Shown here: positions 10,855 to 28,306 of the stretch, one piece after another | How positions within the stretch are numbered: the first letter of the stretch is position 1 | Layout of the letters: each line of letters starts with the position of its first letter | Origin: an uncultured Candidatus Cloacimonadota bacterium | GTDB lineage: Bacteria; Cloacimonadota; Cloacimonadia; Cloacimonadales; CAYQPF01 | Assembly: GCA_964419225.1 (NCBI GenBank) | Contig: CAYQPF010000035.1 | Span: forward strand, 1 to 36,014 | Direction: 5' to 3' | DNA length: 36,014 nucleotides | Notes under the pieces: model-generated | Database searches by the model: none | What the model was told of the DNA's origin: nothing | Seen by the model: the letters and a program-made list of their open reading frames with translations, nothing else | Translations under genes and position numbers: made by a program

Positions 10855-11118
10855 ACGCTTAATAGAACGCGGATGGCGCTGATCAGGCGGATGGTCGCAG
10901 ATCGGAGAGATATGTTAAAGACAGATATGTCAGGTAAAACTACCAAAAACTGAGTCTACAATTTTTAGGACTGACCGTAAGAGAAAGCATTTTTCAAATC
11001 GGCCCGGCATTTATGCGGAAATAAAAAAAGATGAAAACCTCTCTTTCTGTTTCGATCAATAATTTACAAATCCGCGATTAACTGCGTTTTCCGTGTTAAT
11101 CCGCGTTCTATTAAGCGT
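10855..11118. repeat. Perfect 20-bp inverted repeat 'acgcttaatagaacgcggat' / 'atccgcgttctattaagcgt' flanking 224 bp in a convergent intergenic region. It is a MITE-like or long-stem structured element.
   Basis: Arms at 10855-10874 and 11099-11118 are exact reverse complements. Nested imperfect 'gcggat'/'atccgc' sub-repeats lie just inside both arms. No ORF is inside. Confidence 0.6.
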
Positions 11119-11122
11119 CTCT

Positions 11123-14100
11123 TCATTCTTCTAATCTTACCTTACAGGCAAGGGCTTTTTCCGGCTGTCCTGCTTTTTCATACAGATCACATAAATGTTT
11201 ACCAACCGTAGTTGTATAGAGATGATCCGGGCCAAAGTATTTCTCACAGATAGCTAAGGCTCTGATATACAAAGGTTCGGCTTCTGTATATTTCCCTTGA
11301 GATTTATATATTCCTGCTAAATTGCTCAATGAACTCGCGGTTTTTAAATGTTCAGGGCCAAGTATTTTTTCGCTTATAGCCAAAGCTTTCAGGTTAAATA
11401 TCTCAGCTTGAGCAAATTTGCTTTGAATCTTAAACAAATCTGCCAGACTATTGAGTAAACTCACAGTATCTGGATGCTCTTCACCCAGAGTTTTTTCCTG
11501 GATCATTAAAGCTCTTTGATAAAGCGGTTCGGCTTTCTCATAAACTCCTTGTTTTCTGTACAGATCTCCCAGATAGTTAAGTGTTTTCGCAGTATCAGGA
11601 TGTTCCATTCCCAGAATCCTCTCCCTGATTTCCAATACTTTGAGGTATAGGTGTTCAGCCTGATCAAATTTACTCTGATTGTGATAAAACACAGCCAGAT
11701 TATTCAGGGATAATGCTGTACTGGGATGTTCTTCACCCAGAACCGTTTTCTGAATGTTCAAAGCTCTTAAATAGCTAATTTCAACCTCATCATATTTACC
11801 CTGTATATCATATAAATTTGCTAAATTGTTCAGTGTGGCTGCTGTTTCATGATGATCAACTCCCAATGTCTCTTCTCTTATTTTTAAACATCTTAGATAA
11901 TAAATCTCAGATAACTCAAATTTACCTTGCTCAGTATATAAGTGCGATAAATTATTAAGCATAGTCGCTGTTTCAGGATGCTCAGCACCAAAGACTCTTT
12001 CGGAAATTTTTAAGGTTTTCAGATACATTGACTCTGCCAAATCTAATTTGCCCTGATTCGTATATAAAATAGCCAAATTATTGATCACTCCTCCAGTATT
12101 TGGATGTTCTGAACCAAGCTTTTCTTCTAATATTTCTAAAGCCTGTAAGAACATAGATTCACCCAGGTCATATCTTCCTTGATTTACATACAGGAGTCCC
12201 AGATAATTAATAGTTAAGGCTGAGTTCACATGCCTTAATCCAAAAAGTTTCTTTTGAGTTTCCAAAGTACTCAGATAAAGGACTTCTGCTTGATCATATT
12301 TTGTCTGACAAACATACAAATATGCCAGATTTATAGCTGTTCGGGCTGTTTCCTGATGCTCGGATCCATAGACCTTCTTAAAAATATCCAAAGACTTTAA
12401 AAACAACAACTCTGATTGATCATATTTACCTTGACTCATATATAATGTAGCCAGATTATTCAGAGAAAGTGCTGTATCTGGATGATCTGAACCTAAAACT
12501 TTTTCTCTAATATTAAAGGCTGTCTGGAATAAGAGTTCAGCACGGTCATTTTGACCCAACACATAAAACATACACGCCAAAAGATTAATTGAACTTGCAG
12601 TATCCGGATGTTCTTCTCCGAGTATTCGTTTATGGATTTCCAAAGCTCTATTCAAATTTGTTTCAGCTTTAGTAAAATCATATTTTTCTGCAAAATAGTC
12701 TCCAGCTTTAGAGTAATATTGTGCAGCCTTAATCTCCTCACCCGCACATAAATAATGATTGGCGATGTCTTCAGCATTCGAATCAAGCTCTTTTGCAAAT
12801 AAACGTTCCATAGCTTGAGCCGCAAGCAAATGCAATTGTTGCAAACGTTGAGTAAGCATACGCTGATATGCAATATCCTTAATCAGCACATGTGAAAATA
12901 TGTAACTGATCTCATCAAAATTTGTCCAAACCCTCCTGCTTTTTCCAAAACTTAGATCTTCTTCAATTTCCATGCCCAACATATTAGCAAGCAATTCGGT
13001 ATTGAACTCCAATCCCAAAACACAGGCATTTTGCAGAGTTTGACGAACTCTTTCTGTTAGGTTATCAATGCGGTTACCAATAATGTCGGCAATACCGAAA
13101 GTGCTTATCAGAGTTGTATCCACAGTAATATTGTAAAATTGATCAAATTGGTTATTCTCCTTTAAATAAGCTGTCAATTGCTCAATAAAAAATGGATTTC
13201 CTTCTGACCGGGTTATTATTAATTCTAATGTTGTCCTGGGTATATTGCTATGATTCAATAACTGGCTTATCAAGTTTTTACTACCTACTGGTGTTAAATG
13301 GTTCAGATCCATAACTTCCTTCCTGAAACCTGGCAAACCTAAATCTACCTGACTGCCATCTTCATTATAACGGCAAGCACAAATGATGTGTACAAAAGGA
13401 ACTGAGTTTTCACCTAAAGCTCTAAAATATTCCAGTGTTTTTGTCTCTATCCACTGAGGATCATCCAAATGTATGATAATTGGTTTCTGCTCTGCTAAGG
13501 CTTGTAAAAAAGAAACAAAAGCATGCTTAATCTGCTCTGATCTTTTTTCCGGGGGCAAAAAACTGAATATCGAATGCTCCCACTCATAACCAAGCAGCGA
13601 AGCAATAAAAGATTCTATGCGCAAGAGTTCCTGATCTTCCTGAGCTAGTTCAGACCATGTCCTGTGGAATTTTTCCAGGTTACGCTTAATAGACTGTAAA
13701 TGTTCAGTACCAAAGTAGCTGTGAAGAATCTGTTTTACAGGTTCAAGAGATTTTTTACTGACCGGATCACAAAAAGTAAAGAACTTATGAAAGCAGGAAT
13801 CTGGAAGACCTTTTATGGCTTCAGATATGAGTCGGCTTTTACCAACTCCGGCTTCTCCTGAAACATAAACAACAGAGCTGTCCTTGGCCTTCAAGAAGCT
13901 TTGTAAAACCGATATTTCTACATCCCGCCCGGTAAATTCACTTTCGGACAAATTTAATTTCTCTGATCTGAAACCCTCCAACCGGTAAACATTGACTGGG
14001 GCAGAAAACCCTTTAAGCTCAATGAATCCAATATTCGAAAATATGTAACGATGATGCAAATCTCGTTGTAACCAAGTATCAGTAATGACCCTTCCATCTG

Positions 14101-15106
14101 CAGACTTGCTCAATAAGCGTGCAACCAGATTAACTGCTGCTCCCACTGCCGTGTATTCACGAGTATGCTTTACCCCGACAAAACCTGCATAAACATTACC
14201 ACTGGCAATACTCATAAGCAGTTTAGGAATTGTGTTAGCAACATCAAGAGCAAAACGGCAAATCCGGTCCAGGGTATTTCCCTCAGATTTAGGTAACCCA
14301 AAGAGGATAAAGCCCTCCAGTCCTTTGCCTGTCCCGTCCAGTCTGGTCAAAAAACCACTATAAGCATCCAGTTTATCATGCAGAACAGCCAAAGTTTGTT
14401 CCCACTCCTCAACAGCTATCTGACTTAGATCTACAAAGCAAAAGGCTGCATCACGGATTTCATTAGCCGGCTGCTCATTTAAAAGACGTTTATGACAGAA
14501 TTTCTCATAAGAAGCGTGGGAGAAAGGATAATCCAAACAAAGATCAGGATAAATCGTTTCTGTTTCAACTGCATTAATCCTGTCAATTTGCTCCAAAACT
14601 CCTTTTGACCAGGCGACAGCTTGTTTCGCAACTGAAAGTTGGGAGATCTCCTGTAACGGTTCGCCATAGAAAACATATTCATTTTGATACTCATTTTGAA
14701 AGATCTGCCAATTAATCATTCCGGAACTAATTGTTAACCTTACGGCTATCTTAAAATCACCGCAGGCAGAAGAAAATATTCTATGTTTCGCGAAATATTG
14801 TTCTATCTTCTTTACAACATTAACAATTCTTTCGGGTTTTCCCTCAGGAAACAAAGTACAAAAACCATCTCCGGCAAACACACTGACGAAACCGCCATTT
14901 TTCTCTACAAGATTTAAAGGATATGTAAATATTTCTTCCAGAAAACGGCTTAATTCTTCGGCTCCTCTTTTACCATGTTTACGAAATTCATTGCTGATAA
15001 CGGTAAAATCTGCTATATCAAAAAACAAAACAAAACTTTCGAAACTTCCCGAATATCTGTCATTTTCAAAACGGTTAAGAAAAAAAGGCGGTATATATCT
15101 AATCAT
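11123..15106 (-). CDS. Adenylate/guanylate cyclase (tandem class-III cyclase-homology domains) - AAA/STAND NTPase - TPR-repeat signalling protein
   Basis: Cyclase blocks read 'FFDIADFTVISNEF...FAGDGFCTLF', with a second block 'FCFVDLSQIA...'. Walker A reads 'VSGEAGVGKSRL'. At least 12 TPR_10/12-type repeats carry the recurring 'EHPDTA..LNNLA.LY..QGKY..AE' unit. The ATG at 15106 is preferred over the GTG at 15127 because an AGGGAG SD lies 6 nt upstream of it. Confidence 0.8.
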   Translation of the reverse strand: MIRYIPPFFLNRFENDRYSGSFESFVLFFDIADFTVISNEFRKHGKRGAEELSRFLEEIFTYPLNLVEKNGGFVSVFAGDGFCTLFPEGKPERIVNVVKKIEQYFAKHRIFSSACGDFKIAVRLTISSGMINWQIFQNEYQNEYVFYGEPLQEISQLSVAKQAVAWSKGVLEQIDRINAVETETIYPDLCLDYPFSHASYEKFCHKRLLNEQPANEIRDAAFCFVDLSQIAVEEWEQTLAVLHDKLDAYSGFLTRLDGTGKGLEGFILFGLPKSEGNTLDRICRFALDVANTIPKLLMSIASGNVYAGFVGVKHTREYTAVGAAVNLVARLLSKSADGRVITDTWLQRDLHHRYIFSNIGFIELKGFSAPVNVYRLEGFRSEKLNLSESEFTGRDVEISVLQSFLKAKDSSVVYVSGEAGVGKSRLISEAIKGLPDSCFHKFFTFCDPVSKKSLEPVKQILHSYFGTEHLQSIKRNLEKFHRTWSELAQEDQELLRIESFIASLLGYEWEHSIFSFLPPEKRSEQIKHAFVSFLQALAEQKPIIIHLDDPQWIETKTLEYFRALGENSVPFVHIICACRYNEDGSQVDLGLPGFRKEVMDLNHLTPVGSKNLISQLLNHSNIPRTTLELIITRSEGNPFFIEQLTAYLKENNQFDQFYNITVDTTLISTFGIADIIGNRIDNLTERVRQTLQNACVLGLEFNTELLANMLGMEIEEDLSFGKSRRVWTNFDEISYIFSHVLIKDIAYQRMLTQRLQQLHLLAAQAMERLFAKELDSNAEDIANHYLCAGEEIKAAQYYSKAGDYFAEKYDFTKAETNLNRALEIHKRILGEEHPDTASSINLLACMFYVLGQNDRAELLFQTAFNIREKVLGSDHPDTALSLNNLATLYMSQGKYDQSELLFLKSLDIFKKVYGSEHQETARTAINLAYLYVCQTKYDQAEVLYLSTLETQKKLFGLRHVNSALTINYLGLLYVNQGRYDLGESMFLQALEILEEKLGSEHPNTGGVINNLAILYTNQGKLDLAESMYLKTLKISERVFGAEHPETATMLNNLSHLYTEQGKFELSEIYYLRCLKIREETLGVDHHETAATLNNLANLYDIQGKYDEVEISYLRALNIQKTVLGEEHPSTALSLNNLAVFYHNQSKFDQAEHLYLKVLEIRERILGMEHPDTAKTLNYLGDLYRKQGVYEKAEPLYQRALMIQEKTLGEEHPDTVSLLNSLADLFKIQSKFAQAEIFNLKALAISEKILGPEHLKTASSLSNLAGIYKSQGKYTEAEPLYIRALAICEKYFGPDHLYTTTVGKHLCDLYEKAGQPEKALACKVRLEE

Positions 15107-15133
15107 AATTAACTCCCTACTTCTCACGGAAGA

Positions 15134-15240: not shown

Positions 15241-17694
15241 TTAAAACAATTTCTGCGGATTGGAGAGAATGCTTAAATACATTTTCCGGGAAGTACTCCC
15301 TTGAGAGTTTTGGGTGGAAGCTTTCAAACTGTATCTTGCAGGAAAAATACCCTGATCAAGAAAATATGTTTTTAAGGATTCCTCGAATTCAATTTTGGAC
15401 ACAGCTGCATTAGTCTCACTGACAACATTGATCCTCAAAAAATAGGTAGGATTAGTTCGCATGATTTTGATCACATCTTTGAACTTAGTCTGATAAAAAT
15501 CAGGTGCCGGATTGGTTAACTCGGGATAAGCAGAAATCGTATAATCATAAGAAAACAATCTGGTATTGGACAGGAAATAATATCCTGCTTTAATACTTCT
15601 GAAACTGAGGTATTTTTCATTCAGTTGGAAAGTCAATAAAGTAAGTTTGAACCCATCATCATAGTACAGATACAGATCTGACTGATTATTAAGTGAAACA
15701 AGAGAATCAGTCATAGGCAGGTAAATGGTTGAAGCTGATAGAGATTCCCCGAATTGATATACACAATCCCAAGCCGGGTAGTTCATCAGAATAAGGCTGT
15801 CAGTGACAATAGAAAAATCTTTGAGGTTATCCAACAAATTGACATAAGCCCCATTCGGGAGAAAACTGGATTTATTACCGTCAAAAGCAATCTCAGTAAC
15901 TTGTTGATTTTTCAAAACAAAGGACTTTTCGCTTTTTGTCAGTTTATCAAAGTAAGGTGCCATCAGTAAATAATTTTTGGCAGATAAGGCCGCTAATTTA
16001 TATGATTTGAAAACAGGATCAGAGAAGATGGGAATAACACGTTCGGTGAAATTAAACAATTGAGCATACTTTTTTTCTTTATTAAGAGCCCAGGCATAGT
16101 GAAGAGCAATTTGCTTTAAACTGTCAATAGTACCAGGAACAGAAGTTTGTAACTCTTGGAATAAGTCCACAATTTCACCGGATTTGCTTTCTTGCCGTAG
16201 TTTGCGGGCAAGTTCATTTTTAGCGGGATAATACAATTTATGGTAAGGATAATAAGCAATAATTTTACGAAGTGACTGGACCGCAAGGGTATCACTTTTC
16301 AGTTGCTGTGAACAACGGTATTTAAGCCAATAGCAATCTGCAGAAACAGAATTATCTTCAACACTACTGATAACTCCATCCAGAACCTGAATACATTTTT
16401 GGTATTCATTATTCTGGAAAAGCAGCTTCGCATTTTGCAAAGACATCTTCAACAAGAAATCCAGAGAATTGATTTCCGAACAGGACTTATTGATCTCATC
16501 TACAGTTTTTGTCAAATTTTTGGGGGAGTAGTTAAGTAAAGAAAGATAGCACTTGGCATAATTCTTATGTACAGCAAGTTGATTAGAGCTGAGAGAATTA
16601 AAAACATATCCGGCCTGAGCAAAATCACCTTGCTTGTAACATTGCTCTGCCCACATAAAGAGGACTTTTTCCTTCAAAGGTGTGTCTTTAAATTGATCTA
16701 GAAAAAAAGCATAATCTGCCAAAACAGGTACCTGCTTCGTAGAGCTGGTTTCCAATTTTTCGTATAATTCCAAGTCGAATTTCTGTTCAAAAGTGTAAAA
16801 CATAGAGTTCAAAGCAGATGCTTGAGGAAACTTGATACCGAACTGCAAATTAGGCTCCTGTTTAAAATCATTAATGGGAAAATCTAAAAGGATAGTTTTT
16901 CTAATCTGTTGCAGAATGGTCTGTAATTGACCTTCCAGTTTAATTTCACTGGAAAGGTTTGTATAAAACCCGTTAAACTTAAGGCACATTCTTTCCATTG
17001 TCGCAGTAGGTTTGGGAGCTATATCCAGAACATAGATAGATACATCTGAGTTTTTTAAAACACCAACCAGATCTTTATTGGAGACAGACGAACCATTATC
17101 TTCGCCATCAACAATGATAAAGAGATATTTATTATGAAATCGTGGTTGTTCATTAAGGTCTGCCACTGCCAGGACAAGTGCATCATTGGTATATGTTTTA
17201 TCTGTAAAAGAAGGAATATTGGCTATTTCTTTCTTTATTAAAAAAGGTGAATTGGAAAAGAATAATCTTTTACGGGTTATCAAGCTGGCTTCACTCTCGT
17301 TGATCCGGGAAATATTACGCCCATCTCCATAATCATAAAGAGACAGGTAAAAATCACTGCTAAGGCTGTCCTGAAAGGAAGTCAGAGCTTTTTGCACATT
17401 GGCATATTTATCCTTCATTGATAGTGAGTTATCCAGTACTATACTTATATTTTTTATCTCTGCAGTATTACCAAGAAATGCAGTTTTTTTAACAACTGTT
17501 CTTTCAGAATTAACTTCCAGAGTAATTTCTGACGGTTTGACTACTTTTATAAGTGATGTTTGGCCCGGAGTTAAATAAAGTCGATACAGGGAGTCTTGCC
17601 CTGCAAAAACACGTGTAACTTTATAAGGTTCGGTCTCTGCAGCAATTAAGCAAGCCCAAATGAAGAGAACAAACAACAGTATAATTTTTTTCAT
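15241..17694 (-). CDS. Secreted von Willebrand factor A (vWA) domain protein with a C-terminal TPR-like/helical region
   Basis: Signal peptide 'MKKIILLFVLFIWACLIAA'. MIDAS-type motif in 'ISIVLDNSLSMKDK...YLFIIVDGEDNGS'. The ORF is 817 aa. Its start overlaps the upstream gene as ATGA. Confidence 0.7.
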   Translation of the reverse strand: MKKIILLFVLFIWACLIAAETEPYKVTRVFAGQDSLYRLYLTPGQTSLIKVVKPSEITLEVNSERTVVKKTAFLGNTAEIKNISIVLDNSLSMKDKYANVQKALTSFQDSLSSDFYLSLYDYGDGRNISRINESEASLITRKRLFFSNSPFLIKKEIANIPSFTDKTYTNDALVLAVADLNEQPRFHNKYLFIIVDGEDNGSSVSNKDLVGVLKNSDVSIYVLDIAPKPTATMERMCLKFNGFYTNLSSEIKLEGQLQTILQQIRKTILLDFPINDFKQEPNLQFGIKFPQASALNSMFYTFEQKFDLELYEKLETSSTKQVPVLADYAFFLDQFKDTPLKEKVLFMWAEQCYKQGDFAQAGYVFNSLSSNQLAVHKNYAKCYLSLLNYSPKNLTKTVDEINKSCSEINSLDFLLKMSLQNAKLLFQNNEYQKCIQVLDGVISSVEDNSVSADCYWLKYRCSQQLKSDTLAVQSLRKIIAYYPYHKLYYPAKNELARKLRQESKSGEIVDLFQELQTSVPGTIDSLKQIALHYAWALNKEKKYAQLFNFTERVIPIFSDPVFKSYKLAALSAKNYLLMAPYFDKLTKSEKSFVLKNQQVTEIAFDGNKSSFLPNGAYVNLLDNLKDFSIVTDSLILMNYPAWDCVYQFGESLSASTIYLPMTDSLVSLNNQSDLYLYYDDGFKLTLLTFQLNEKYLSFRSIKAGYYFLSNTRLFSYDYTISAYPELTNPAPDFYQTKFKDVIKIMRTNPTYFLRINVVSETNAAVSKIEFEESLKTYFLDQGIFPARYSLKASTQNSQGSTSRKMYLSILSNPQKLF

Positions 17695-18422
17695 TTTATC
17701 CTCAGCAAAATATAGTCGGTCGTTTTTTCAATTCTAAAATACTTGCAGGTTAGTTTATTATTGCCGGCTATTTTATCAAATTGATTCAGCCATTCACCGG
17801 TGGAAATCGCTTTATCTTTGTTTGTATCAGAAGTTTTTAGAGCTTTAGTAGTTCTATAAACAGTTTGTCTTAAATAATAAAGTTGATCATCAAGAGATGT
17901 GCTTTGCACATCAGAACTTTGGGAATTGATAACAACGAGATACTTACCTGAGGTAAAGTCTGTACAAGAATATTCCTGCAAAAATTCTTCAGGAAGAGGA
18001 GATTTTCCGGGTGCTACGATAAATATGATATTATTGAACGCCGGACTGATCTTAATAAAATTCAAAAGATAATCCAAAGTCAGAGTGGTTTTGTATTCTG
18101 TTGCCAAAATACTGGATTCTCCACCAGATTTTTTTTCCCAGGCTCCTGCTAAAACACCACAGAAGAAGGAACTATCTGTTAAAGACTTGGAAAAATCCAG
18201 ATATTGAGAGAAAACATTTTCCTTGAGATTAATCTGGACTGAACGTTGGGGTGTTTGCTGAAAAGCTCCGCTAAGTATTTGAAGCAGTTCATCCTTGTTC
18301 GAGTCGAACCCTTTTGCTTTGAATTGATCATTACCTTCAGAGCTATGTATTAGCAAACTATAGTTTAACCCATTAAGGCTAAAACTGAGCATAAGGCAAA
18401 TTAAAATAATTATGGATTTCAT
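17691..18422 (-). CDS. Secreted hypothetical protein
   Basis: ORF of 243 aa with an N-terminal signal peptide 'MKSIIILICLMLSFSL'. It is translationally coupled by ATGA overlaps on both sides within the MoxR-vWA operon. Confidence 0.45.
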   Translation of the reverse strand: MKSIIILICLMLSFSLNGLNYSLLIHSSEGNDQFKAKGFDSNKDELLQILSGAFQQTPQRSVQINLKENVFSQYLDFSKSLTDSSFFCGVLAGAWEKKSGGESSILATEYKTTLTLDYLLNFIKISPAFNNIIFIVAPGKSPLPEEFLQEYSCTDFTSGKYLVVINSQSSDVQSTSLDDQLYYLRQTVYRTTKALKTSDTNKDKAISTGEWLNQFDKIAGNNKLTCKYFRIEKTTDYILLRIK

Positions 18423-20155
18423 TTTTTCTTTCCTTTACCGGCAGGAACGGTATTGGTATTCTCAATTTCCGGAGTGGTTACCACCGGAGCTTCTGCTGCT
18501 TTCAAAGCAGTTTCCAGAATTTTAATTTGATTTAAAAGTTCAAAATAGTTTTTATAATTTTTGAATTGTTCCAGCATCTTACCCGATTCAGGATCAGTTT
18601 GATTCATTTGAGACTGTAGATTTTGATACTTCTGCAGAACAGGTGGAAATTTCTGGTACAGTTGATTAAGCGGATTTTTCAGCAGAGGAACAGCATTAAT
18701 CTTTTCAAAATAAATCATGTCAGGATACAACAAAGAAAGATCTTTCAGAGTGTTCGTTTTTGCTTTGAGCTCTTTATTGAATTTCGGCATTAAAAAGGTT
18801 GTTAAATATTGCTGACACAGATTAAGACTATCCGGTACAAAAAGAACATTTACCGGATTTGCACTCCCCGTAAAAATATTATCTAACTGCCCATATAGAA
18901 GACCAGGGCTGTCAACAGATCCATAGAATATGATATTTACCCCATTAAATGGCTTTTCATTAATGCTTCGTAAAAGATTATTTACGGTAAAGGCAGACCT
19001 GTCATTCTTCAAAACAGTAGCTGTTTCAGTGACAAAAAGATCTCCACAGATAATCAGATTCAGGGTGTAATCTAAATTTGTTTCCATCTTGGATATCCCG
19101 GACAAATAGGTCTCCAAGGTCGCAGGACTTTCATATGAGTAAAGAATATTGGCATTTGCCTTCTGTCCTATTCCAGTCCATTGATTGGAAAACAGATCAT
19201 AAAAGAAGTTTGCCTTTTCTTCATATGCTTTGTTACCGTTAAAAATATAAGTATAGTTATTAGTATCCTGCTTCAAATCCATCCAGTCCTGAGGATAGCC
19301 CTGAACAATATTCTGCAGATAATAATTCAAACTATCTTCTAATGCATAGAAATCATTGTTTTTGGCAAAAGAAGAGTAAAAAAGCGAAAACGTATCTGTT
19401 CTTACTATTTCATAAATATCTTTACAGGAAAAAATAAAGTTGTTCAATCCGGGTTTAAGAATCAGGTTTTTCTTGAAGATTTTTTCCTTTGTTAAAGGCA
19501 ATTTCTCATTATTAAGAATAACCTCCTTCAAGGAGTATTTATGATTCACAGTAAAAGTCAGTTCTGCTGTAGGGGGAGTAAAACTTAAGATACTCGAGTT
19601 GAAGGTAACTTTTGGAGTTGGAAGATTGTTTTTGAATTTATCAGGGAAGTCGGTCATTAGACATTCTTTAATCAGAGAAGACATTTTGGAATTGGTTTGC
19701 TGAGAAAAGAATTGATAGTAAGCAAACAACATTTTGTAAATATCCGGCGAACGTCGATCAATTTTATGGATCAGATTCTGATAATATTTATCCTGATATT
19801 TTGTAAGCGAAAGCAAAGTTAAAAGGGAATCTGATGGATTTATTAAATAGGCCTGTGACAGATAATTGTAGGCCAAATCACTCTTTTCACACTGAAAATA
19901 AATAACACCCTTTGCCTTTAAAAAAACCGGTTGAGGTACAACATTATCCTCAAAATTACTCAGCTCCTGACTTGCCATGACCGGCATAAAATTGGCCAGA
20001 TAACTCTCCAGCAATTCTATTCGCAAAGCTATACTCTTAGGATTATAAAAGACTTTCTGATACAAACTGTCTAAAGAAGTCGCACTATTTTCAGCAGTCA
20101 ATAAGGTTAAAACTGAAAACAGTATTAATAATAGAATTATCTTTTTCATACTCAA
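18419..20155 (-). CDS. Secreted hypothetical protein with an N-terminal TPR-like region
   Basis: ORF of 578 aa. Signal peptide 'MKKIILLLILFSVLTLLTA'. The C-terminus is Lys-rich. ATGA overlap with the MoxR stop. Confidence 0.5.
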   Translation of the reverse strand: MSMKKIILLLILFSVLTLLTAENSATSLDSLYQKVFYNPKSIALRIELLESYLANFMPVMASQELSNFEDNVVPQPVFLKAKGVIYFQCEKSDLAYNYLSQAYLINPSDSLLTLLSLTKYQDKYYQNLIHKIDRRSPDIYKMLFAYYQFFSQQTNSKMSSLIKECLMTDFPDKFKNNLPTPKVTFNSSILSFTPPTAELTFTVNHKYSLKEVILNNEKLPLTKEKIFKKNLILKPGLNNFIFSCKDIYEIVRTDTFSLFYSSFAKNNDFYALEDSLNYYLQNIVQGYPQDWMDLKQDTNNYTYIFNGNKAYEEKANFFYDLFSNQWTGIGQKANANILYSYESPATLETYLSGISKMETNLDYTLNLIICGDLFVTETATVLKNDRSAFTVNNLLRSINEKPFNGVNIIFYGSVDSPGLLYGQLDNIFTGSANPVNVLFVPDSLNLCQQYLTTFLMPKFNKELKAKTNTLKDLSLLYPDMIYFEKINAVPLLKNPLNQLYQKFPPVLQKYQNLQSQMNQTDPESGKMLEQFKNYKNYFELLNQIKILETALKAAEAPVVTTPEIENTNTVPAGKGKKK

Positions 20156-21144
20156 CCAAGGGTTTTTAGTATTTTTTGGACAATATCCTGAGATTTGTAT
20201 CCCTCTGCTTCTGCAGCAAAAGAGAGAAGCAGTCTGTGTTGCAGAACGATCTCAGCAGAGCTGATCACATCTTCAACCGATGGTGTAAGTCGATTATCCA
20301 TGGCAGCTTTGGCTTTGGCAGCCAGAACCAGGAATTGAGAAGCTCGAGGCCCGGCACCCCAGTTAACCATACTCTTAACAAAGTCCGGTGCTTCAGGATT
20401 TGAAGGGCGGGTTTTTCTTACCAATTTAACAATAAAATCAAGAACATGCTCACTCACAGGAATATTCCGGATTGATTCCTGAATTTTTACAATGTGGGCG
20501 GCATCTGTTATCTTTCTCAATTCTGTTTTTTCTGAACTTGTAGTTTTTTCAGCTATCATTTTCTCAGTATCATAAGAAGGATAATCAATATAAATCTTAA
20601 ACATAAATCTGTCTAACTGAGCTTCGGGTAAAGGGTATGTACCCTCCTGCTCGATTGGATTCTGGGTCGCTAATACTAAAAATGGTTGATCCAAATTATA
20701 TGTCTGATTTCCTGCTGTAACCTGATACTCCTGCATAGCCTGCAATAGTGCAGACTGCGTCTTGGGAGGTGTTCTGTTGATTTCATCTGCCAGAATAATA
20801 TTAGCAAAGACAGGACCCTTGATGTATTCAAAATACCGTTTACCATCAGATTTATCTTCAGCTAAAATATCTGTACCTGTAATATCAGATGGCATTAAAT
20901 CCGGGGTAAACTGAATTCTGCTAAACTTTAGATCCATTACTCGAGCTAAGGATGATACTAAAAGTGTCTTAGCCAAGCCAGGGACTCCTTCCAACAAACA
21001 ATGCCCGTTACAAAACAAGGCACAAAGGAAATCCTCTATTACTTTTTCCTGTCCGTAAACAGACTTATTTATTTCCGAAATTATCTTTTTCTTAGTATCC
21101 TGTACTGTTTCCAGCACTTTTACGAAATCAGCGTTACTTTTCAT
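20152..21144 (-). CDS. moxR: MoxR-family AAA+ ATPase
   Basis: Walker A reads 'GVPGLAKTLLVSSLARVM'. Walker B/sensor reads 'ILADEINRTPPKTQSALLQAMQE'. The ORF is 330 aa, typical MoxR size. Confidence 0.9.
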   Translation of the reverse strand: MKSNADFVKVLETVQDTKKKIISEINKSVYGQEKVIEDFLCALFCNGHCLLEGVPGLAKTLLVSSLARVMDLKFSRIQFTPDLMPSDITGTDILAEDKSDGKRYFEYIKGPVFANIILADEINRTPPKTQSALLQAMQEYQVTAGNQTYNLDQPFLVLATQNPIEQEGTYPLPEAQLDRFMFKIYIDYPSYDTEKMIAEKTTSSEKTELRKITDAAHIVKIQESIRNIPVSEHVLDFIVKLVRKTRPSNPEAPDFVKSMVNWGAGPRASQFLVLAAKAKAAMDNRLTPSVEDVISSAEIVLQHRLLLSFAAEAEGYKSQDIVQKILKTLG

Positions 21145-22141
21145 TTTCTATTGCTCCTGTTTCTATAACATCAATAATTTTATAACCGGAATAACTGATG
21201 GCAATAAATCCCACCAGAATAATCAAACCGCCTGTCAATAAATGGGCAAAAGCCATGACAGCACTCACCATCGTTTTATCAAGTCCCAGACCTGCTGAGA
21301 ATACAATAATCATCACAAGTTCATTACTCCCGATTTGAGCAGGAGGATGTGGTATAACATAAGACAAATATATCAGGGTATATCCGAATAAAATCATAAA
21401 ATAATTGATCTCCTGATTAAATGCCTTGAACATAAACAGGAAATAAACACTATCAATACTGACAGCTAATAGTGTAAGAATAAGTAACTCCGGCAGAAGA
21501 ACGTAATGATTTTTGAAAATTGCAACACCTTCGACAAACAATTGCACAATATCTTCGTATTTTTTTTCGTATTTATAGGGGATATATTTACTCCAACGGT
21601 GGAGAAAAGCAATAATTTCATCTTTCTTTATTGCAGATAAAATCAAAATAGTAAATCCAACAAAAAATACAGCTATCAACATAATAATCAGAAATAATAA
21701 ATAATCCGATACATGTACATTAAGAAAAGGTAATAAAATTAAGACCAGAAAAATTGAAACTGAATCAAACATCTTGTCAATGAAAACAGAAGGTAGTGTT
21801 TTCGAAATAGGAACACCCGTAGTCTTTTTAACAAAAAAACTCTTTGCCAACTCGCCTGCTCGAACAGGGATCATATAATTTATAAAATTCCCTGCCATCC
21901 AAATCAAAAAGGTACGACCTGCACCCATCTTTAAATTCACAGAGAGAAGTTTATTCCAGCGTAAGGAGCGTACAAAGTATGATAATAAATACAAAAATGC
22001 TGCAATCACGACATATGATAGTTTTACACTCCGGAAATATGGCACAATATCTTTTACATCAATAAATTTAGACCAGATACCCAGAAAAAGAACACCGATA
22101 ATTAATCCCAGTATTACTTTCCAAATATTACTTTTTTTCAT
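21134..22141 (-). CDS. Polytopic membrane protein, flippase-like/UPF0104 (lysyl-phosphatidylglycerol-synthase transmembrane-region-like) family
   Basis: ORF of 335 aa with about 8 hydrophobic segments. The N-terminus 'MKKSNIWKVILGLIIGVLFLGIWSKFIDVKDI...SLRWNKLL' is typical of this family. It overlaps both neighbours. Confidence 0.55.
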   Translation of the reverse strand: MKKSNIWKVILGLIIGVLFLGIWSKFIDVKDIVPYFRSVKLSYVVIAAFLYLLSYFVRSLRWNKLLSVNLKMGAGRTFLIWMAGNFINYMIPVRAGELAKSFFVKKTTGVPISKTLPSVFIDKMFDSVSIFLVLILLPFLNVHVSDYLLFLIIMLIAVFFVGFTILILSAIKKDEIIAFLHRWSKYIPYKYEKKYEDIVQLFVEGVAIFKNHYVLLPELLILTLLAVSIDSVYFLFMFKAFNQEINYFMILFGYTLIYLSYVIPHPPAQIGSNELVMIIVFSAGLGLDKTMVSAVMAFAHLLTGGLIILVGFIAISYSGYKIIDVIETGAIENEK

Positions 22142-23237
22142 AGTTTTCAGGATTAGAAAATCCCTTTACTCCGATTAGCTTTTTAGGACAAATATCGTAA
22201 CAGTGCAAACAACGCAAGCATTTTTTACGATCAAATGTAAACTTTGCAGATATTGCTCCAACTGGGCATTCTTCAAGACATTTTCGACAATCCTGACAGA
22301 AGGAAATAGGTTCCAAAATCGGCCTCGTCCCAAAATAGCCTGTCTTGTAAAGAAAAGTATTAAAATGTACGGAAAATAATTTTTCGAACACAAAATCAAT
22401 TATATACAGACATCTGTAGGCAAACTGATAACCCTTACTTTGCTTTGGCAGTTCAAATTTATGTCTTTCAATATTCCCTTCGATTTCAATTGGTACATTA
22501 TTCCGAGCTAAGTTTATATAGGAAATATCTTTATAATCTACACCCATGAAATCGCAGGCAATTTTATCAGTTGCAAAGGGATCTAATCCTGCTATCAGAG
22601 TCATAGTCTTTTTCAAATTTCCATAAACCGCCCCATCACCTTCCATGGAATTGATAGCATCGATAATGGTTAAGGTTGGCTTTATAACCTTGTTCAGATC
22701 AGCCACAGCCGCATGAATCCCTAAACTATGCATCAATTTACGAGTGTCATGATGACAAAAACCCATCAGATTCTTCATCCCCAGAGTAACCTGGGTTATA
22801 ACGTGCGTTTTCAAAATCGGCACATTTACAATCTTATTTTCCAAAACTATTCTTGGGACTTTAATCTTTTTCAGTACAAAAGAATTGGGAACAGGTATGG
22901 TTATAAAATCCTTCTCTTCAGGAATAAATACTTCTATATCGTGTTTTTCTGCAAATTCCCAGATCTTCAAATAATTGAACACTTCGCGGGTATCAAATTC
23001 CATTCCCGGCATCTCACAGATTATAGGCTTACATCCCAGTGTCTGAAGTTTCTGCACGATAGCTTCCAGTAATCCAAGATTGGTCGTGGCACCCTTGGAA
23101 TTCTCTCTGGGTGCTACAAAATTCGGCTTTAGGATAACCCTTTCTCCACTCTTGAATAATTGAGTCCATTCTAATTTATCCAGAAAAGGATATATGTCCA
23201 GTTCATCCTTAAGCTTCTGTATATAAACCTTATTCAT
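22128..23237 (-). CDS. DUF362 domain protein with a C-terminal 2x[4Fe-4S] ferredoxin module
   Basis: Two CxxCxxCxxxCP motifs read 'CQDCRKCLEECP' and 'CLRCLHCYDICP'. The start is placed at the internal 'MNKVYIQ' ATG, because the longer ORF would overlap the upstream gene by about 100 nt. Confidence 0.65.
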   Translation of the reverse strand: MNKVYIQKLKDELDIYPFLDKLEWTQLFKSGERVILKPNFVAPRENSKGATTNLGLLEAIVQKLQTLGCKPIICEMPGMEFDTREVFNYLKIWEFAEKHDIEVFIPEEKDFITIPVPNSFVLKKIKVPRIVLENKIVNVPILKTHVITQVTLGMKNLMGFCHHDTRKLMHSLGIHAAVADLNKVIKPTLTIIDAINSMEGDGAVYGNLKKTMTLIAGLDPFATDKIACDFMGVDYKDISYINLARNNVPIEIEGNIERHKFELPKQSKGYQFAYRCLYIIDFVFEKLFSVHFNTFLYKTGYFGTRPILEPISFCQDCRKCLEECPVGAISAKFTFDRKKCLRCLHCYDICPKKLIGVKGFSNPENYEKK

Positions 23238-23241
23238 TGTC

Positions 23242-24072
23242 TCAATTGGGAACAAAAACATAGTATTTATGATGAGCCCAGAATTGCTTGAAGAAGTCCG
23301 GTGCTGCTTTTTCCAACCAAAAATACTGAAGCATTTTATCTTCAAAAAGAGGATCTTTGTCCCGATAAAAATCCATAATCGTTACTGCACTCTTAGGTTC
23401 ATCACTTGGGGGTAACTTAATCCCGAACTTAGCCACAAACTCCTCTTTAGGCATCCCGATATCCGGCCAGGGTGGACAATCAATGAAATTACTCAATATC
23501 AAATTCCAGCCCATACTTTTCATTATTGGTTTAAAACACCCAGGTGAAATATATTCTTCCTTTAAGGTCGATTGTAACTCTTTCTTCCCAAAATATTTCT
23601 GGGACAAATAACCTAAACCTGTTGTATTCGGAACACAAAGCACAATAACTTTCTTTGTAACCCTGTTCAGTTCTGCTAAAAATTGCGTAATATCTTGTAC
23701 AAACCAAAGTGCAGAGAAATTCCAGGAAAAATCTATACTTTTGTCAGGTAAATTAATATTATCGTAGTTTGTGTTATATTGAAAATTGGCTGAAAGATTT
23801 GTCTTCTTCCATTCTTCTTCCATTAAACTAATTCTTTCTTCATCATGATCAAGCAACGTAATATTCATTCCCTTCAGAGCTAAATTCATACTATTGATTC
23901 AACTCAGACCTGTAAAACCAAAACAAGGTGCCTCTAAGACAGACTCTACCTTGAAATTGCGGACAATCTTATTCAAAAAATGATTAATTATTACTCTTTC
24001 ATAGGAAGAGCCTAGACCCTCATCAGGATCAGAAAAATAGTTTTTCCAGATATTAACAATTGGAATGGCCAT
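23242..24072 (-). pseudogene. Class I SAM-dependent methyltransferase interrupted by a single in-frame TGA at 23899-23901. It is a nonsense-mutation pseudogene, an assembly error, or recoded.
   Basis: ORFs 23899..24129 and 23242..23889 are in the same frame, separated only by TGA-ATC-AAT-AGT. The joined sequence '...VLEAPCFGFTGLS*INSMNLALKGMNITLLDHDEE' reads like a methyltransferase motif I/post-I region. Confidence 0.6.
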
Positions 24073-25033
24073 TTTGCTCCTTATACCAATCAATAACTCT
24101 CTGAAAATCAGGTATTGTATGGCATTCATCTAACTTCAAATCAGCGTATGTATCCTCGGTATTGTAATCCCAATCCCGTGAGATCAATTCTATTCTGCTG
24201 GTCCACAATTCGTTCTTTAAAGCCTTGAAAAAAGTTTCACTCAAGCGAAAACAACTGTCAGATAACATAATATTATAATTCTTTTTCTTTAAGCCATCTC
24301 TGATAAAAGTGAACAAGTCTTTCAATATAACAGGTTCTTTATCTGCTAAATTATATGCTTTACCGACAGGAAGATCAAGTTCGCAAGCATTGACAAACGC
24401 CTGTGTTATCAAATCCACATTCGCCAAATGAATCTTAACCTCACTCATAGGCAGGGCCATCATATATTTATCTGTCAGTTTTGTCAGAGTATAAGGAAAT
24501 CCATAATCTCCTTCACCATATGTAATCGAAGGTCTCAAAACCACTGCATTCAAGCCAAGTTTCACCTTCTCCTGAATCATTTTTTCACATTCTATCTTAG
24601 TGATATGATAATAATTATCCCGTTTGAACGGAGTTGAATCATTCGCCGGGACGCTTTGCGGTATCGCTCCATACACACCGACTGAAGAGCAGAATATGAA
24701 TTTACTGTTGTTCTTCAGAGCGTTATCAAGCAATTTACCGGTTGCTTTGATATTGGCCAGAAAGTACGAAGACATGGGGAACCTTCTCCCGCCTCGCAAA
24801 GCACCAATATGCATAATAATGTCGAAGGAATTCTGATTAAGGTATTTCTCCAAACCAAAAACATTCTCCAAATTGATTTCTACCAATTGAATCTTATCTC
24901 TGTATTCTGCAATTTTCTGCAAATCAGAACCAGGTCGGACAAGCCCTGTTATCTCATAATCTTTTTCTATTAATTGCTTCAGAATGTGATGTCCGATAAA
25001 GCCATTGATCCCTGTTACTAATATTTTTTTCAT
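24053..25033 (-). CDS. NAD-dependent epimerase/dehydratase (extended SDR) family protein
   Basis: The Rossmann motif 'KILVTGINGFIGHHIL' and the YxxxK region are present. The start is set at 'MKKILVTG', adjacent to the cpsB stop, and the 24-codon upstream extension is rejected. Confidence 0.8.
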   Translation of the reverse strand: MKKILVTGINGFIGHHILKQLIEKDYEITGLVRPGSDLQKIAEYRDKIQLVEINLENVFGLEKYLNQNSFDIIMHIGALRGGRRFPMSSYFLANIKATGKLLDNALKNNSKFIFCSSVGVYGAIPQSVPANDSTPFKRDNYYHITKIECEKMIQEKVKLGLNAVVLRPSITYGEGDYGFPYTLTKLTDKYMMALPMSEVKIHLANVDLITQAFVNACELDLPVGKAYNLADKEPVILKDLFTFIRDGLKKKNYNIMLSDSCFRLSETFFKALKNELWTSRIELISRDWDYNTEDTYADLKLDECHTIPDFQRVIDWYKEQNGHSNC

Positions 25034-25034
25034 T

Positions 25035-25820
25035 CTATAATCCAAATAATTTCTTAAATAATGATTTTTTTGCTTCCGGCTGCTTCTTAAAGCGTTCCGC
25101 TCCAAAATAATTTACTTTTTCGTTTTTCAGCATCTTCATGGGATTGATTTCGGAAAGTAATTTAGCAGTATGATCATTGGTTTCACTCCGAATAGCTTCT
25201 ACTGCATCAACATAACTATAATCCTGTGTATGACAGTGAGTATCAGAACCTAAAAAATGTGCATATCCGTTGTAGATCATTTCCCAGGCAGTATCCTGAA
25301 TCTTCTTGCCATAACCACCCAACAGGCTTCCGGTATTGATCTGCATATAAATATTCCGATGAATCAGATCTTCTACTGCATAGGGATTATTAATAAATTC
25401 TGTATATCTTTCAGGATGAGCCAAAATCGGTTTATAACCCTGTTTTACCAGAATATAATAAATATCGAGCAAACCGTTGGGAAAACCATTCATACTGGTT
25501 TCCATAAGAATATAATTTGTATTATTTAAGGTCAGGTTTTCCTTGATAACATCCAAGTGAATATCTTCACTAAGAAATATTTCTGCACCACGGTAAAGTT
25601 CAATATTTATATTCTCTCTTTGTACTGCATCTTTTAATATCTGAAATTTCACATTTTGAATTTCCGCTGTATTATCATAAAATCCCTTCATGTAATGGGG
25701 AGTCAAAATTACACCTTTAATTCCCTCCTCACTCATAAACTTCAAATAATCTAAAGATGTATCCAGATCCGGAGATCCGTCATCAACATCAAACATAATG
25801 TGAGAATGTATATCAATCAT
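25035..25820 (-). CDS. CpsB/CapC-type PHP-family protein-tyrosine phosphatase (capsular polysaccharide biosynthesis)
   Basis: Diagnostic N-terminus 'MIDIHSHIMFDVDDGSPDL'. Further His/Asp metal ligands are seen in 'LTPHYM', 'LAHPERY' and 'LGSDTH'. The ORF is 261 aa. Confidence 0.85.
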   Translation of the reverse strand: MIDIHSHIMFDVDDGSPDLDTSLDYLKFMSEEGIKGVILTPHYMKGFYDNTAEIQNVKFQILKDAVQRENINIELYRGAEIFLSEDIHLDVIKENLTLNNTNYILMETSMNGFPNGLLDIYYILVKQGYKPILAHPERYTEFINNPYAVEDLIHRNIYMQINTGSLLGGYGKKIQDTAWEMIYNGYAHFLGSDTHCHTQDYSYVDAVEAIRSETNDHTAKLLSEINPMKMLKNEKVNYFGAERFKKQPEAKKSLFKKLFGL

Positions 25821-26572
25821 ATGCCATCCTTACTAATTTGTATTGCCTGAGCAAATTCACTGATTAATGCTTTATCCGGAGTGTTCTCGAAAACAGTCCC
25901 AATCACCACAAAATCTGCTCCGGCTCTTGCTTTACAAGCCGCTTCCTCAGGTGTTTTTATGCCACCCCCGACAATAAGAGGGATTTCAATATTATTTTTT
26001 ACAACGGTAATCATTTCTTCAGGCACAGAGTTTTTAGCTCCGCTTCCGGCTTCCAAATAAACCATTCGCATGCCTAAATACTGCCCGGCTAAAGCATGCG
26101 TCACCGCAATATCAATTTTCTTTCTGGGTATGGGAATACTGTGACTCATGTACTGCACCGAAGTCAAACTGTTGGATTCGATCAACAAATAAGCAGTACC
26201 AATACTTTCCAGATTATACTTTTTAATCAAAGGAGCAGAACGAACCTGTTCTCCTACTAATAATTCCGGATTCCTGCTGCTCAGCATACTTAATAAGAGT
26301 ATTGCATCAGCATATGGAGAAACGAAATTAAACAATCCTGGGAAGATTATTAATGGTATTTTTACCTGCTTTTTTATTTCTCTTAAACACGATTCAAAAT
26401 TATCATGGAGCATCATACTACCACCTATGAGAAGTGCATCTGCCCCACTTTCTTCGCAATCCAAGGCAAAATCTATAGCAGTTCCCTCGCTATGCTTATC
26501 CGGATCGATAAGACAGAAAAACCCAGTTCTTTTCCGGGCAATTTCTAAGAGTTTCTCATATGTTTTTATCAT
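25817..26572 (-). CDS. PcrB/GGGP-synthase family (geranylgeranyl- or heptaprenyl-glyceryl phosphate synthase) TIM-barrel prenyltransferase
   Basis: The ORF is 251 aa with 'FFCLIDPDKHS', 'LLIGGSMM' and a C-terminal 'LIVGGGIKTPEEAACKARAGADFVVIGTVFE' phosphate-binding block. An ATGA overlap joins it to cpsB. Confidence 0.8.
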   Translation of the reverse strand: MIKTYEKLLEIARKRTGFFCLIDPDKHSEGTAIDFALDCEESGADALLIGGSMMLHDNFESCLREIKKQVKIPLIIFPGLFNFVSPYADAILLLSMLSSRNPELLVGEQVRSAPLIKKYNLESIGTAYLLIESNSLTSVQYMSHSIPIPRKKIDIAVTHALAGQYLGMRMVYLEAGSGAKNSVPEEMITVVKNNIEIPLIVGGGIKTPEEAACKARAGADFVVIGTVFENTPDKALISEFAQAIQISKDGI

Positions 26573-26573
26573 A

Positions 26574-27404
26574 TTATTTACCTATCCACATTATTATCAG
26601 GATGAAAAACATATTCAGTTTCATCAAATTAGAGATATAATTCAAATTTTTCTTGGTAACATTTCTGTTCAAAAATAAGTAAGAGATCAACAAAGGCAAA
26701 ATGGTAAAAATATTGAGCAAATTAAAAGTCAGCATCGATATCATTCCATGCCAAAATAGAGAAAAAACACCAATACCCATCGCTAATATCAGCGTAAATG
26801 TAATCGAAAAAGTCCAAGTCTTTCCCATTACAATTGGTATAGTTTTTGCCCCCTGACTCATATCACCTTCCACATCTTCCGTATCCTTGATGATTTCCCG
26901 GATCAATGTATATGTAAAAGCAATAAATGAAATTGCCAGCGCATAACTGACATTATCATTGGCTATTGCCCCGTAAAAGAATGTCGAAGCTGCAGAATAT
27001 GCTATCAACAAATTACCCAACAAAAATGTCTTTTTCAAATATCCTGCATAGACCACTAACAGCAATGTATTCACAACTGCAATTATGATACACCATTTAT
27101 GCCAGGTCAAAACACTCAGAAAAAAACCGGTAATCATCAGAATCCAGGCATACTTTAAAGCCGTACCTGGTGAGATTTTACCAGAAGGTAAAACCCTGTC
27201 TTTTCTGTTTATCTTATCGATTTCCAGATCATAATAATCATTAAGTACATAACCACCTGCTGCTATAAAAGTGGCAGCTAAAGCACTTAAAATTATGACC
27301 CTGATATCAAAAACAGTTGCCTTGATCATTGCCCCATACACTACACATAAAGCAGTAAAAAAGCAATTGAAAGGTCTGATTATCTGCAGAAATGCTTTTA
27401 TCAC
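26574..27404 (-). CDS. UbiA-family prenyltransferase, DGGGP-synthase-like (digeranylgeranylglyceryl phosphate synthase homologue)
   Basis: Eight or nine TM helices. Asp-rich motif 'NDYYDLEIDKINRKDR'. It sits immediately upstream of the PcrB/GGGPS gene, which is the archaeal ether-lipid gene order. Confidence 0.7.
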   Translation of the reverse strand: MIKAFLQIIRPFNCFFTALCVVYGAMIKATVFDIRVIILSALAATFIAAGGYVLNDYYDLEIDKINRKDRVLPSGKISPGTALKYAWILMITGFFLSVLTWHKWCIIIAVVNTLLLVVYAGYLKKTFLLGNLLIAYSAASTFFYGAIANDNVSYALAISFIAFTYTLIREIIKDTEDVEGDMSQGAKTIPIVMGKTWTFSITFTLILAMGIGVFSLFWHGMISMLTFNLLNIFTILPLLISYLFLNRNVTKKNLNYISNLMKLNMFFILIIMWIGK

Positions 27405-28292: not shown

Positions 28293-28306
28293 ATTGCACC
28301 TCGCTT

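Follow-up and report, generated by a model that had tools for sequence, protein, structure and literature searches.

Bat-type operons encode a cytoplasmic MoxR ATPase beside proteins whose von Willebrand factor A (vWA) domains can face the periplasm (PMC5700661, PMC3557215). MoxR and vWA proteins also occur together in ternary conflict systems, which are characterized by VMAP, iSTAND, and TERNS3 components and in which effector domains occur in the vWA protein's C-terminal region and in a third component (Kaur et al., eLife 2021, PMC8195603). In type III-E Craspase, the TPR-CHAT protease Csx29 cleaves Csx30, which binds RpoE, and the C-terminal domains of some Csx30 proteins are DUF4384 domains (doi 10.1101/2022.08.17.504292). 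Here, we analyzed a 36,014-nt stretch of DNA (contig CAYQPF010000035.1 of assembly GCA_964419225.1; henceforth the window) from an uncultured Candidatus Cloacimonadota bacterium, in which a gene encoding MoxR is directly followed by genes encoding three putative exported proteins of 578, 243, and 817 aa that we refer to as p578, p243, and p817, respectively. The initial annotation had proposed that these four genes encode a noncanonical Bat-like MoxR-vWA system with p578 and p243 as candidate new components or substrates, and this hypothesis is largely not supported. We find that p578, p243, and p817 form a real, conserved, and uncharacterized unit that is the novel part of the locus. The locus is best explained, with a probability of roughly 0.6, by two evolutionarily independent modules that abut each other and are probably cotranscribed, namely the end of a MoxR cluster and a cell envelope cassette consisting of the three genes downstream of MoxR.

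All four genes are on the minus strand. The MoxR gene (positions 20152–21144) encodes a protein of 330 aa that matches the Pfam domain model AAA_3 over the full length of the model (214 bits, E = 5.5e-64) as well as AAA_lid_2 (52.7 bits, E = 3.5e-14) and, having both the AAA_3 core and the lid, is unambiguously assigned by sequence to the MoxR-type AAA+ ATPases. It has no hydrophobic segment and is predicted to be cytoplasmic. The cassette consists of p578 (18419–20155), p243 (17691–18422), and p817 (15241–17694), each of which overlaps its neighbor by 4 bp. The listed TTG start of p578 overlaps the TGA stop of MoxR; however, the true start is more likely the ATG at 20149, which lies 2 nt past the MoxR stop and gives a protein beginning with MKKIILLL. 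The three cassette proteins each contain a single hydrophobic segment that is N-terminal, follows one or two Lys residues, and is not accompanied by any further transmembrane-like segment. These segments were judged by hydrophobicity and are compatible with either a cleaved signal peptide or a signal anchor. The open reading frames and the combination of MoxR with three exported proteins, therefore, are as initially annotated. The same is true for the reported lack of DUF58, because no open reading frame in the window matches DUF58, BatA, or BatD, whereas identical scans of a positive control locus from Elusimicrobiota (L068) detected the canonical MoxR-DUF58-BatA/vWA set (E = 3.9e-48 for DUF58 and 3.3e-14 for BatA). 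The gene immediately upstream of MoxR (21134–22141, minus strand), which encodes a flippase-like multipass membrane protein of the LPG_synthase_TM family (Pfam PF03706, E = 7e-38; TIGR00374), overlaps the MoxR gene by 11 bp, and the tight packing is thus not peculiar to the MoxR/p578 junction. In fact, all genes between 15241 and 27404 are codirectional and this 12-kb array is equally tightly packed throughout. Scans for promoters and terminators returned only background levels and were uninformative.

To place MoxR in its genomic context, we compared the window with 80 related MoxR loci (58–73% identity) on contigs representing one genome per species, nearly all of which are Cloacimonadota metagenome-assembled genomes. 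Neither tblastn nor phmmer with all filters off (--max) identified relatives of p578, p243, or p817 in any of these 80 loci, and the co-occurrence beside moxR genes that a MoxR system would predict was thus not observed. Instead, the genes after MoxR are heterogeneous, have no apparent relation to it, and include those for MarR/OsmC/thioredoxin-like proteins, KdsB, CoA-transferase, the alpha subunit of GlyRS, and histidine kinase, and none of the window genes downstream of MoxR recurs in any of the loci. Upstream of MoxR, by contrast, the genes of the window have homologs in 29–65 of the 80 loci with their order kept, and a homolog of the flippase-like protein is encoded directly upstream of MoxR in 65–66 of them. 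Because synteny is conserved on the upstream side only, its boundary coincides exactly with the 3' end of moxR. Judged by gene order, MoxR closes a cluster that is conserved across Cloacimonadota, and its constant neighbor is the flippase-like membrane protein rather than a vWA protein. The conserved partners of this Cloacimonadota MoxR, accordingly, lie upstream in a lipid-related cluster that ends in the flippase-like protein.

This cluster (21134–29335, minus strand) encodes a GFO/IDH oxidoreductase, a polyprenyl synthase, a UbiA prenyltransferase, PcrB (GGGP-synthase-like), a CpsB/CapC-type phosphatase, an NAD-epimerase, a methyltransferase, and the flippase-like LPG_synthase_TM protein, followed by MoxR. 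The combination of PcrB, UbiA, and polyprenyl synthase presumably resembles ether-lipid genes of the archaeal type, to which a MoxR ATPase and a flippase-like protein are thus constantly linked here. A gene encoding a protein with DUF362 and 4Fe-4S ferredoxin domains (22128–23345, minus strand) is located between the genes for the methyltransferase and the flippase-like protein; the TTG listed as its start gives an overlap of ~100 bp with the preceding gene and probably lies too far upstream. Because this gene has no counterpart in the 80 related MoxR loci, it represents another lineage-specific insertion in the cluster, the second after the cassette. Within one Cloacimonadota subgroup, a gene for a protein of ~310 aa directly follows MoxR (positions 10986–11918 in L052; equivalent genes in ~15 other loci including L054, L056, L060, L063, L066, and L069), and its length is similar across loci. 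The L052 protein has a signal-type N terminus and a repeat-like sequence. We considered this gene as a DUF58 homolog and rejected it, as the protein does not match any Pfam model and resembles a secreted repeat protein. It could be a lineage-specific partner of MoxR.

The families to which the cassette proteins belong are rare. When p578, p243, and the p578-family alignment served as queries, word-indexed searches found nothing but the queries themselves, whereas an exhaustive HMMER search of 1.84 billion representative sequences identified ~19 full-length relatives of p578 that are 550–610 aa long and share 20–25% identity. We looked up the contigs of eight p578 relatives, and a scan of metagenomes with an alignment of the vWA N-terminal region, which gave at least five loci, independently added four more by means of a vWA sequence motif. 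Overall, at least 12 distinct cassette loci with a GC content of 31–57% were collected, several of which are short contigs. All loci with enough sequence encode a p578-like protein, a p243-like protein, and a vWA-TPR(-OmpA) protein on one strand and in the same order as in the window, and the four loci found by the vWA motif have this gene order also when scored with profiles that were built without them. The recurrent layout comprises a p578-like gene, a gene for a protein of ~245 aa without a Pfam match, a gene for a VWA/TPR/OmpA protein of ~935 aa, and, usually, a gene for a TPR-CHAT protein of ~1,165 aa. The TPR-CHAT gene adjoins the cassette in all eight loci with enough flanking or downstream sequence; in one of these (L087) the gene has the opposite orientation, and the CHAT domain was confirmed by Pfam. 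MoxR, on the other hand, is not encoded within up to 10 kb of the cassette in any of the 12 distinct loci. The trio is, on this comparative evidence, a self-standing, horizontally distributed, and rare uncharacterized cassette of the cell envelope.

Because the cassette adjoins CHAT elsewhere and never MoxR, the apparent MoxR system most likely consists of two neighboring modules. The cassette would have inserted at the MoxR cluster's variable 3' end and would probably be transcribed by read-through from there; operon-like packing beside MoxR does not alone make a MoxR system. The proposal that p578 and p243 are partners or substrates of MoxR is not supported, given the reciprocal lack of co-occurrence (0 of 80 and 0 of 12 loci) together with the end of synteny at the 3' end of moxR. 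Several points nevertheless weigh against two independent modules. First, the start of the cassette abuts the stop of MoxR (2-nt gap or 4-bp overlap, depending on the start codon), which makes cotranscription of the cassette with MoxR likely. Second, the pairing of MoxR with vWA proteins is widespread and the chance landing of a vWA cassette beside MoxR is a priori improbable, although this is tempered by the window having been flagged for that very adjacency. Third, topology does not exclude a link to MoxR, because Bat-type operons are a precedent. Fourth, the missing CHAT partner could mean that the window cassette has newly acquired partners. Finally, the cassette sample comprises 12 distinct loci only, modeling of p243 gave no usable fold, and the interactions within the cassette are proposals.

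These points could be accommodated if MoxR had been recruited in this lineage as a chaperone of the cassette, giving rise to a noncanonical Bat-like MoxR-vWA system. MoxR would then act on p817 before or during its export, for example by loading the metal of the metal ion-dependent adhesion site (MIDAS) or by controlling assembly; p578 and p243 would be new accessory subunits, and MoxR might replace the missing CHAT partner. The location of the genes on the same strand with abutting or overlapping reading frames is in line with recruitment, but tight packing is general in this region. Similarly, the MIDAS of the p817 vWA domain is intact and the MoxR-vWA pairing is general, with Bat-like operons joining a cytoplasmic MoxR to periplasm-facing vWA/TPR proteins; however, DUF58, BatA, and BatD are all lacking even though the same tools find the canonical set in L068, and the N termini of the cassette proteins are all of the signal type, whereas MoxR is predicted to be cytoplasmic. 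The lack of the usual neighbors of the cassette in the window is consistent with rewiring, but the cassette is not found in any of the 80 related MoxR loci, MoxR is not found in any of the 12 cassette loci, and the break in synteny coincides exactly with the MoxR 3' end. We, therefore, regard recruitment of MoxR as possible but unlikely and favor two abutting modules.

The three cassette proteins were analyzed individually. In a scan of whole p817, the match to VWA is below the Pfam cutoff; however, residues 1–365 alone match this model (PF00092) with 33.2 bits compared with a cutoff of 23.8 (E = 7.6e-8). Residues 82–254 (16933–17451, minus strand) form a vWA domain with a complete MIDAS, the residues of which (D88, S90, S92, T167, and D196) are invariant in the alignment of the p817 family, in agreement with the initial annotation of this protein. 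p817 does not match PF07584 and its N terminus consists of a single signal-type segment. In every cassette, the product of the third gene is homologous to p817 over residues 83–763 (E = 1e-11 to 3e-26 by phmmer). These relatives are ~935–940 aa long, contain the Pfam domains VWA, TPR, and OmpA, and match tol_pal_ybgF (90.4 bits; cutoff 90.1), Pal/OmpA-like models, and TIGR03436, all of which p817 itself matches weakly. Alignment with the relatives suggests that residues ~733–806 of p817 (15277–15498, minus strand) are a degenerate remnant of an OmpA-like peptidoglycan-binding domain. p817 does not match the Pfam OmpA model, has lost the GHTD and NRRTEF motifs that its relatives keep, and ends ~90 residues early; the tail of the relatives that is absent from p817 may be SPOR-like.

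Neither p578 nor p243 matches a family in Pfam, NCBIfam, or PADLOC, and sequence-profile searches of the PDB with the cassette proteins gave weak TPR matches at most. The two proteins are not homologs of BatB, BatC, or BatD by these profile searches and, as had been suggested, represent two novel families without a database model. The claim that they have no recognizable domains holds for sequence-profile searches but not for structure prediction, which resolves known folds in p578. An AlphaFold2 model of p578 based on an alignment of 17 sequences has a mean pLDDT (predicted local distance difference test) of 82.5, whereas the model of p243 was made from the single sequence, has a pLDDT of 38, and was unusable and discarded. 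The p578 model consists, from the N to the C terminus, of a signal peptide, a TPR-like solenoid, an Ig-like sandwich, an alpha/beta domain, and a helical C-terminal region. The TPR-like alpha-solenoid comprises residues 28–177 (19625–20074, minus strand). The Ig-like beta-sandwich (residues 182–260; 19376–19612, minus strand) has six strands in the model and matches glucodextranase and FN3-like modules in Foldseek, and the corresponding region matches the Pfam model Glucodextran_B in 6 of the 17 family members (best E = 7.4e-8).

The alpha/beta domain of p578 (residues ~296–493; 18677–19270, minus strand) has, in the model, the strand order of caspases (peptidase clan CD) and is predicted to have a caspase/hemoglobinase fold without a catalytic dyad. 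Members of the p578 family have the motifs [S/N/G/A/C]-G-x-W and [D/E/Y]-G after the strands formed by residues 364–370 and 405–411, respectively, and neither a catalytic His after strand 3 nor a catalytic Cys after strand 4 is conserved in the alignment columns of the family, with the positions of the catalytic sites assigned from the strand order of the model rather than from a residue-level structural alignment. Because the predicted fold is that of caspases and the His/Cys dyad is missing, we refer to this domain as a putative pseudo-caspase. p578 and p243 do not have profile similarity to the CHAT domain, and p578 does not have detectable sequence similarity to caspases in the PDB. In the window copy of p578, L373 and Y411 replace the conserved Trp and the conserved acidic residue (D/E) of the family, and the invariant positions Y103, P181, G236, and D274 are kept.

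Homologs of p243 occupy the same slot in every cassette locus (tblastn E values down to 4e-18; also by hmmsearch) and share G-A-W and FIxAP motifs. Based on the family alignment, residues 199–210 of p243 (DTNKDKAISTGE; 17793–17828, minus strand) form an EF-hand-like loop. This loop, DxNxD(G)x[IL][ST]xxE[WF], is present in 9 of 12 family members, and matches to the Pfam EF-hand models are weak and limited to one member. p243 is predicted to be a small exported alpha/beta protein with a putative EF-hand-like calcium loop. We also considered p243 as a second copy of the p578 pseudo-caspase. hhalign gave a collinear alignment of ~150–190 columns with an E value of ~0.05 and a probability of 1%, which is not significant and serves as a lead only.

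Although the trio in the window is arranged in the order of the cassette, it lacks the adjacent TPR-CHAT gene, and genes encoding CHAT or DUF4384 proteins are absent from the entire 36-kb contig. Moreover, the window copy is the most divergent member of each cassette family. With no CHAT neighbor, a degenerate OmpA-like domain, and altered p578 motifs, the window cassette is, as far as can be judged from its sequence, a derived and atypical copy. These same characteristics raise the question of whether the cassette is a decaying or orphaned remnant that was acquired horizontally, resides behind MoxR, and has little or no function. The lack of a CHAT or DUF4384 gene in the contig, the loss of the OmpA motifs and the SPOR-like tail, the replacement of the conserved Trp and acidic residue of p578 by L373 and Y411, and the divergence of all three proteins would be expected of such a remnant; however, none of the three reading frames is interrupted or truncated, the cassette retains the MIDAS residues, the p578 invariants (Y103, P181, G236, and D274), and the p243 motifs (GAW and the EF-hand-like loop), and another part of the genome may encode a CHAT protein given that the search covered one contig. 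We consider it improbable that the cassette is a mere remnant, and an intact although atypical cassette beside the MoxR cluster agrees better with these observations.

The slot that is held by TPR-CHAT in the relatives is occupied in the window by a gene for a protein of 1,334 aa (11123–15127, minus strand) that begins 113 bp downstream of p817. This protein contains two class III cyclase-homology regions, an AAA_16 STAND NTPase domain, and ~12 TPR_12/TPR_10 repeats (Pfam models Guanylate_cyc, AAA_16, and TPR_12/TPR_10), and its TPR part shares 32% identity with the TPR_12 part of the L087 TPR-CHAT protein. It has no hydrophobic segment and is predicted to be cytoplasmic, it has no homolog in the 80 related MoxR loci, and it is a possible member of the cassette unit.

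Among the TPR-CHAT proteins of the other cassette loci, the His and Cys motifs are conserved, and the N termini of all four proteins inspected resemble signal peptides. The match to the NCBIfam model of Csx29 is weak (E = 5.5e-5) and far below the cutoff. In some cassette loci, a DUF4384 protein is encoded downstream of TPR-CHAT. In L092 (19128–20908) and L093 (10137–11917), the TPR-CHAT gene is followed by genes encoding a protein of 215 aa that reads as a divergent ECF (extracytoplasmic function) sigma factor but does not match any Pfam model, and an anti-sigma-like protein of 357 aa with one transmembrane segment and a DUF4384 domain. A membrane protein with CHASE2 and guanylate/adenylate-cyclase domains is encoded directly upstream of the cassette in L087 (5868–8793), L091 (4554–7341), and L097 (3–1919); in two of these three loci a gene for a small secreted protein, which is CpoB/TPR-like in L087, precedes the CHASE2-cyclase gene. 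PADLOC did not report a defense-system match for any of the cassette proteins, a limited literature search did not reveal any description of an exported cassette of pseudo-caspase, EF-hand-like, vWA-TPR-OmpA, and TPR-CHAT proteins, and literature searches likewise returned nothing on an association of CHASE2 with CHAT.

From these components a mechanism of the cassette can be proposed. The vWA-TPR-OmpA protein would anchor a periplasmic complex to peptidoglycan and capture a ligand via its MIDAS site, and the EF-hand-like subunit would make the complex calcium-responsive. The pseudo-caspase would heterodimerize with CHAT and, by analogy with c-FLIP and caspase-8, serve as a noncatalytic scaffold or regulator of the CHAT protease. 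Proteolysis could then be relayed inward to the anti-sigma-like DUF4384 protein or to the CHASE2 cyclase; we propose such a relay because sigma-like and DUF4384 genes follow CHAT in L092 and L093 and because of the Csx30/RpoE precedent in Craspase. The CHASE2-cyclase genes upstream of three cassettes and the cyclase-STAND gene downstream of the window cassette hint at a coupling to cyclic nucleotides, although this is a mere recurrence of domain types. In its strongest form, the proposal would have the trio supply the sensing and scaffolding half of a previously undescribed caspase-type system for extracytoplasmic signaling or defense, the protease of which would have been exchanged in the window for MoxR and the cyclase-STAND-TPR protein. 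An exported TPR-CHAT protease that signals across the membrane via DUF4384 anti-sigma-like proteins or CHASE2 cyclases would be under the joint control of a vWA/MIDAS receptor anchored to peptidoglycan, a subunit that binds calcium, and the pseudo-caspase. We regard this extended interpretation, with its exchange of the protease, as unlikely and interpret the locus as two independent modules.

Additional features of the window are located outside the MoxR cluster and the cassette. A full-length bacterial serpin is encoded at 5516–6670 on the minus strand (Pfam Serpin, E = 9e-108). On the plus strand, 17–2212 encodes a protein of 731 aa in which two PEGA domains are combined with a C-terminal FGE-sulfatase (formylglycine-generating-enzyme-like) domain, and 8257–10833, which overlaps the end of recO, encodes an 858-aa fusion of a DHH phosphoesterase, two CBS domains, and the head domain of a poly(A) polymerase/CCA-adding enzyme. 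The protein of 848 aa encoded at 30586–33132 (minus strand) has an SPFH/Band 7 domain (residues 530–699) as its sole recognizable part.

What is new at this locus are two protein families of ~600 aa and ~245 aa without a Pfam or NCBIfam model and a concrete gene set in which they occur, whereas the single domains are already known. How the locus relates to described systems depends on whether domains or families are compared. As in Bat and BatI-like operons (MoxR, DUF58, BatA, BatB, BatC, BatE, and BatD), MoxR is followed by envelope proteins with vWA(MIDAS) and TPR domains. Unlike in those operons, DUF58, the BatA N-terminal domain, BatD (PF13584), and the SH3 domain of BatE are lacking in the window, the trio has signal-type N termini instead of multipass anchors and includes a putative pseudo-caspase and an EF-hand-like protein, and relatives of the trio never adjoin MoxR. 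p578 and p817 both have TPR-like helices, but they belong to families that differ from BatC and BatE and have relatives of their own. Because the comparative tests and the searches for Bat markers were negative, the likeness to Bat is one of domain types (vWA, TPR, and exported proteins) and not of families; judged by its gene and domain content, the locus is not a Bat operon. The initial description of a noncanonical Bat-like MoxR-vWA system is, thus, appropriate with regard to domain types and the intact MIDAS but not with regard to family membership and adjacency, which is not conserved.

The window also resembles the MoxR-vWA ternary conflict systems in having MoxR, a vWA protein, and further components, with a STAND-TPR protein next door. 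However, the MoxR of the window scores much higher with the AAA_3 model (214 bits) than with bpMoxR (38 bits), and Pfam and PADLOC scans did not detect a VMAP, iSTAND, or TERNS3 component in the window. We take the vWA proteins of the ternary conflict systems to be cytoplasmic. Because the vWA protein of the window is apparently exported and VMAP, iSTAND, and TERNS3 are lacking, the locus is not a ternary conflict system of this type.

The closest parallels of the cassette itself are found elsewhere. Like Craspase, the relatives of the window cassette include a TPR-CHAT protein with an intact dyad and, in some loci, a DUF4384 protein after it, and in L092 CHAT is followed by a gene that reads as ECF-sigma-like, as with Csx30 and RpoE, although Pfam does not confirm this assignment. 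In contrast to Craspase, there is no CRISPR component, the cassette CHAT proteins are apparently exported and occur together with an anchor of the vWA-TPR-OmpA type, a pseudo-caspase, and an EF-hand-like protein, and the window itself lacks CHAT. If the proposed mechanism is correct, the cassette would be a periplasmic counterpart of cytoplasmic CHAT systems such as Craspase, and one of its components would be a bacterial pseudo-caspase with a regulatory role like that of c-FLIP. p578 differs from c-FLIP, MALT1, and the metacaspases, all of clan CD, in being exported and fused to TPR-like and Ig-like domains. Finally, the relatives of p817 match models for the Tol-Pal proteins (the TPR protein CpoB/YbgF and the OmpA-like Pal) and for the acidobacterial-type VWA protein TIGR03436; unlike in Tol-Pal and TIGR03436, these pieces are fused in one protein of ~940 aa within a pseudo-caspase/CHAT cassette, and in p817 the OmpA-like part is degenerate.

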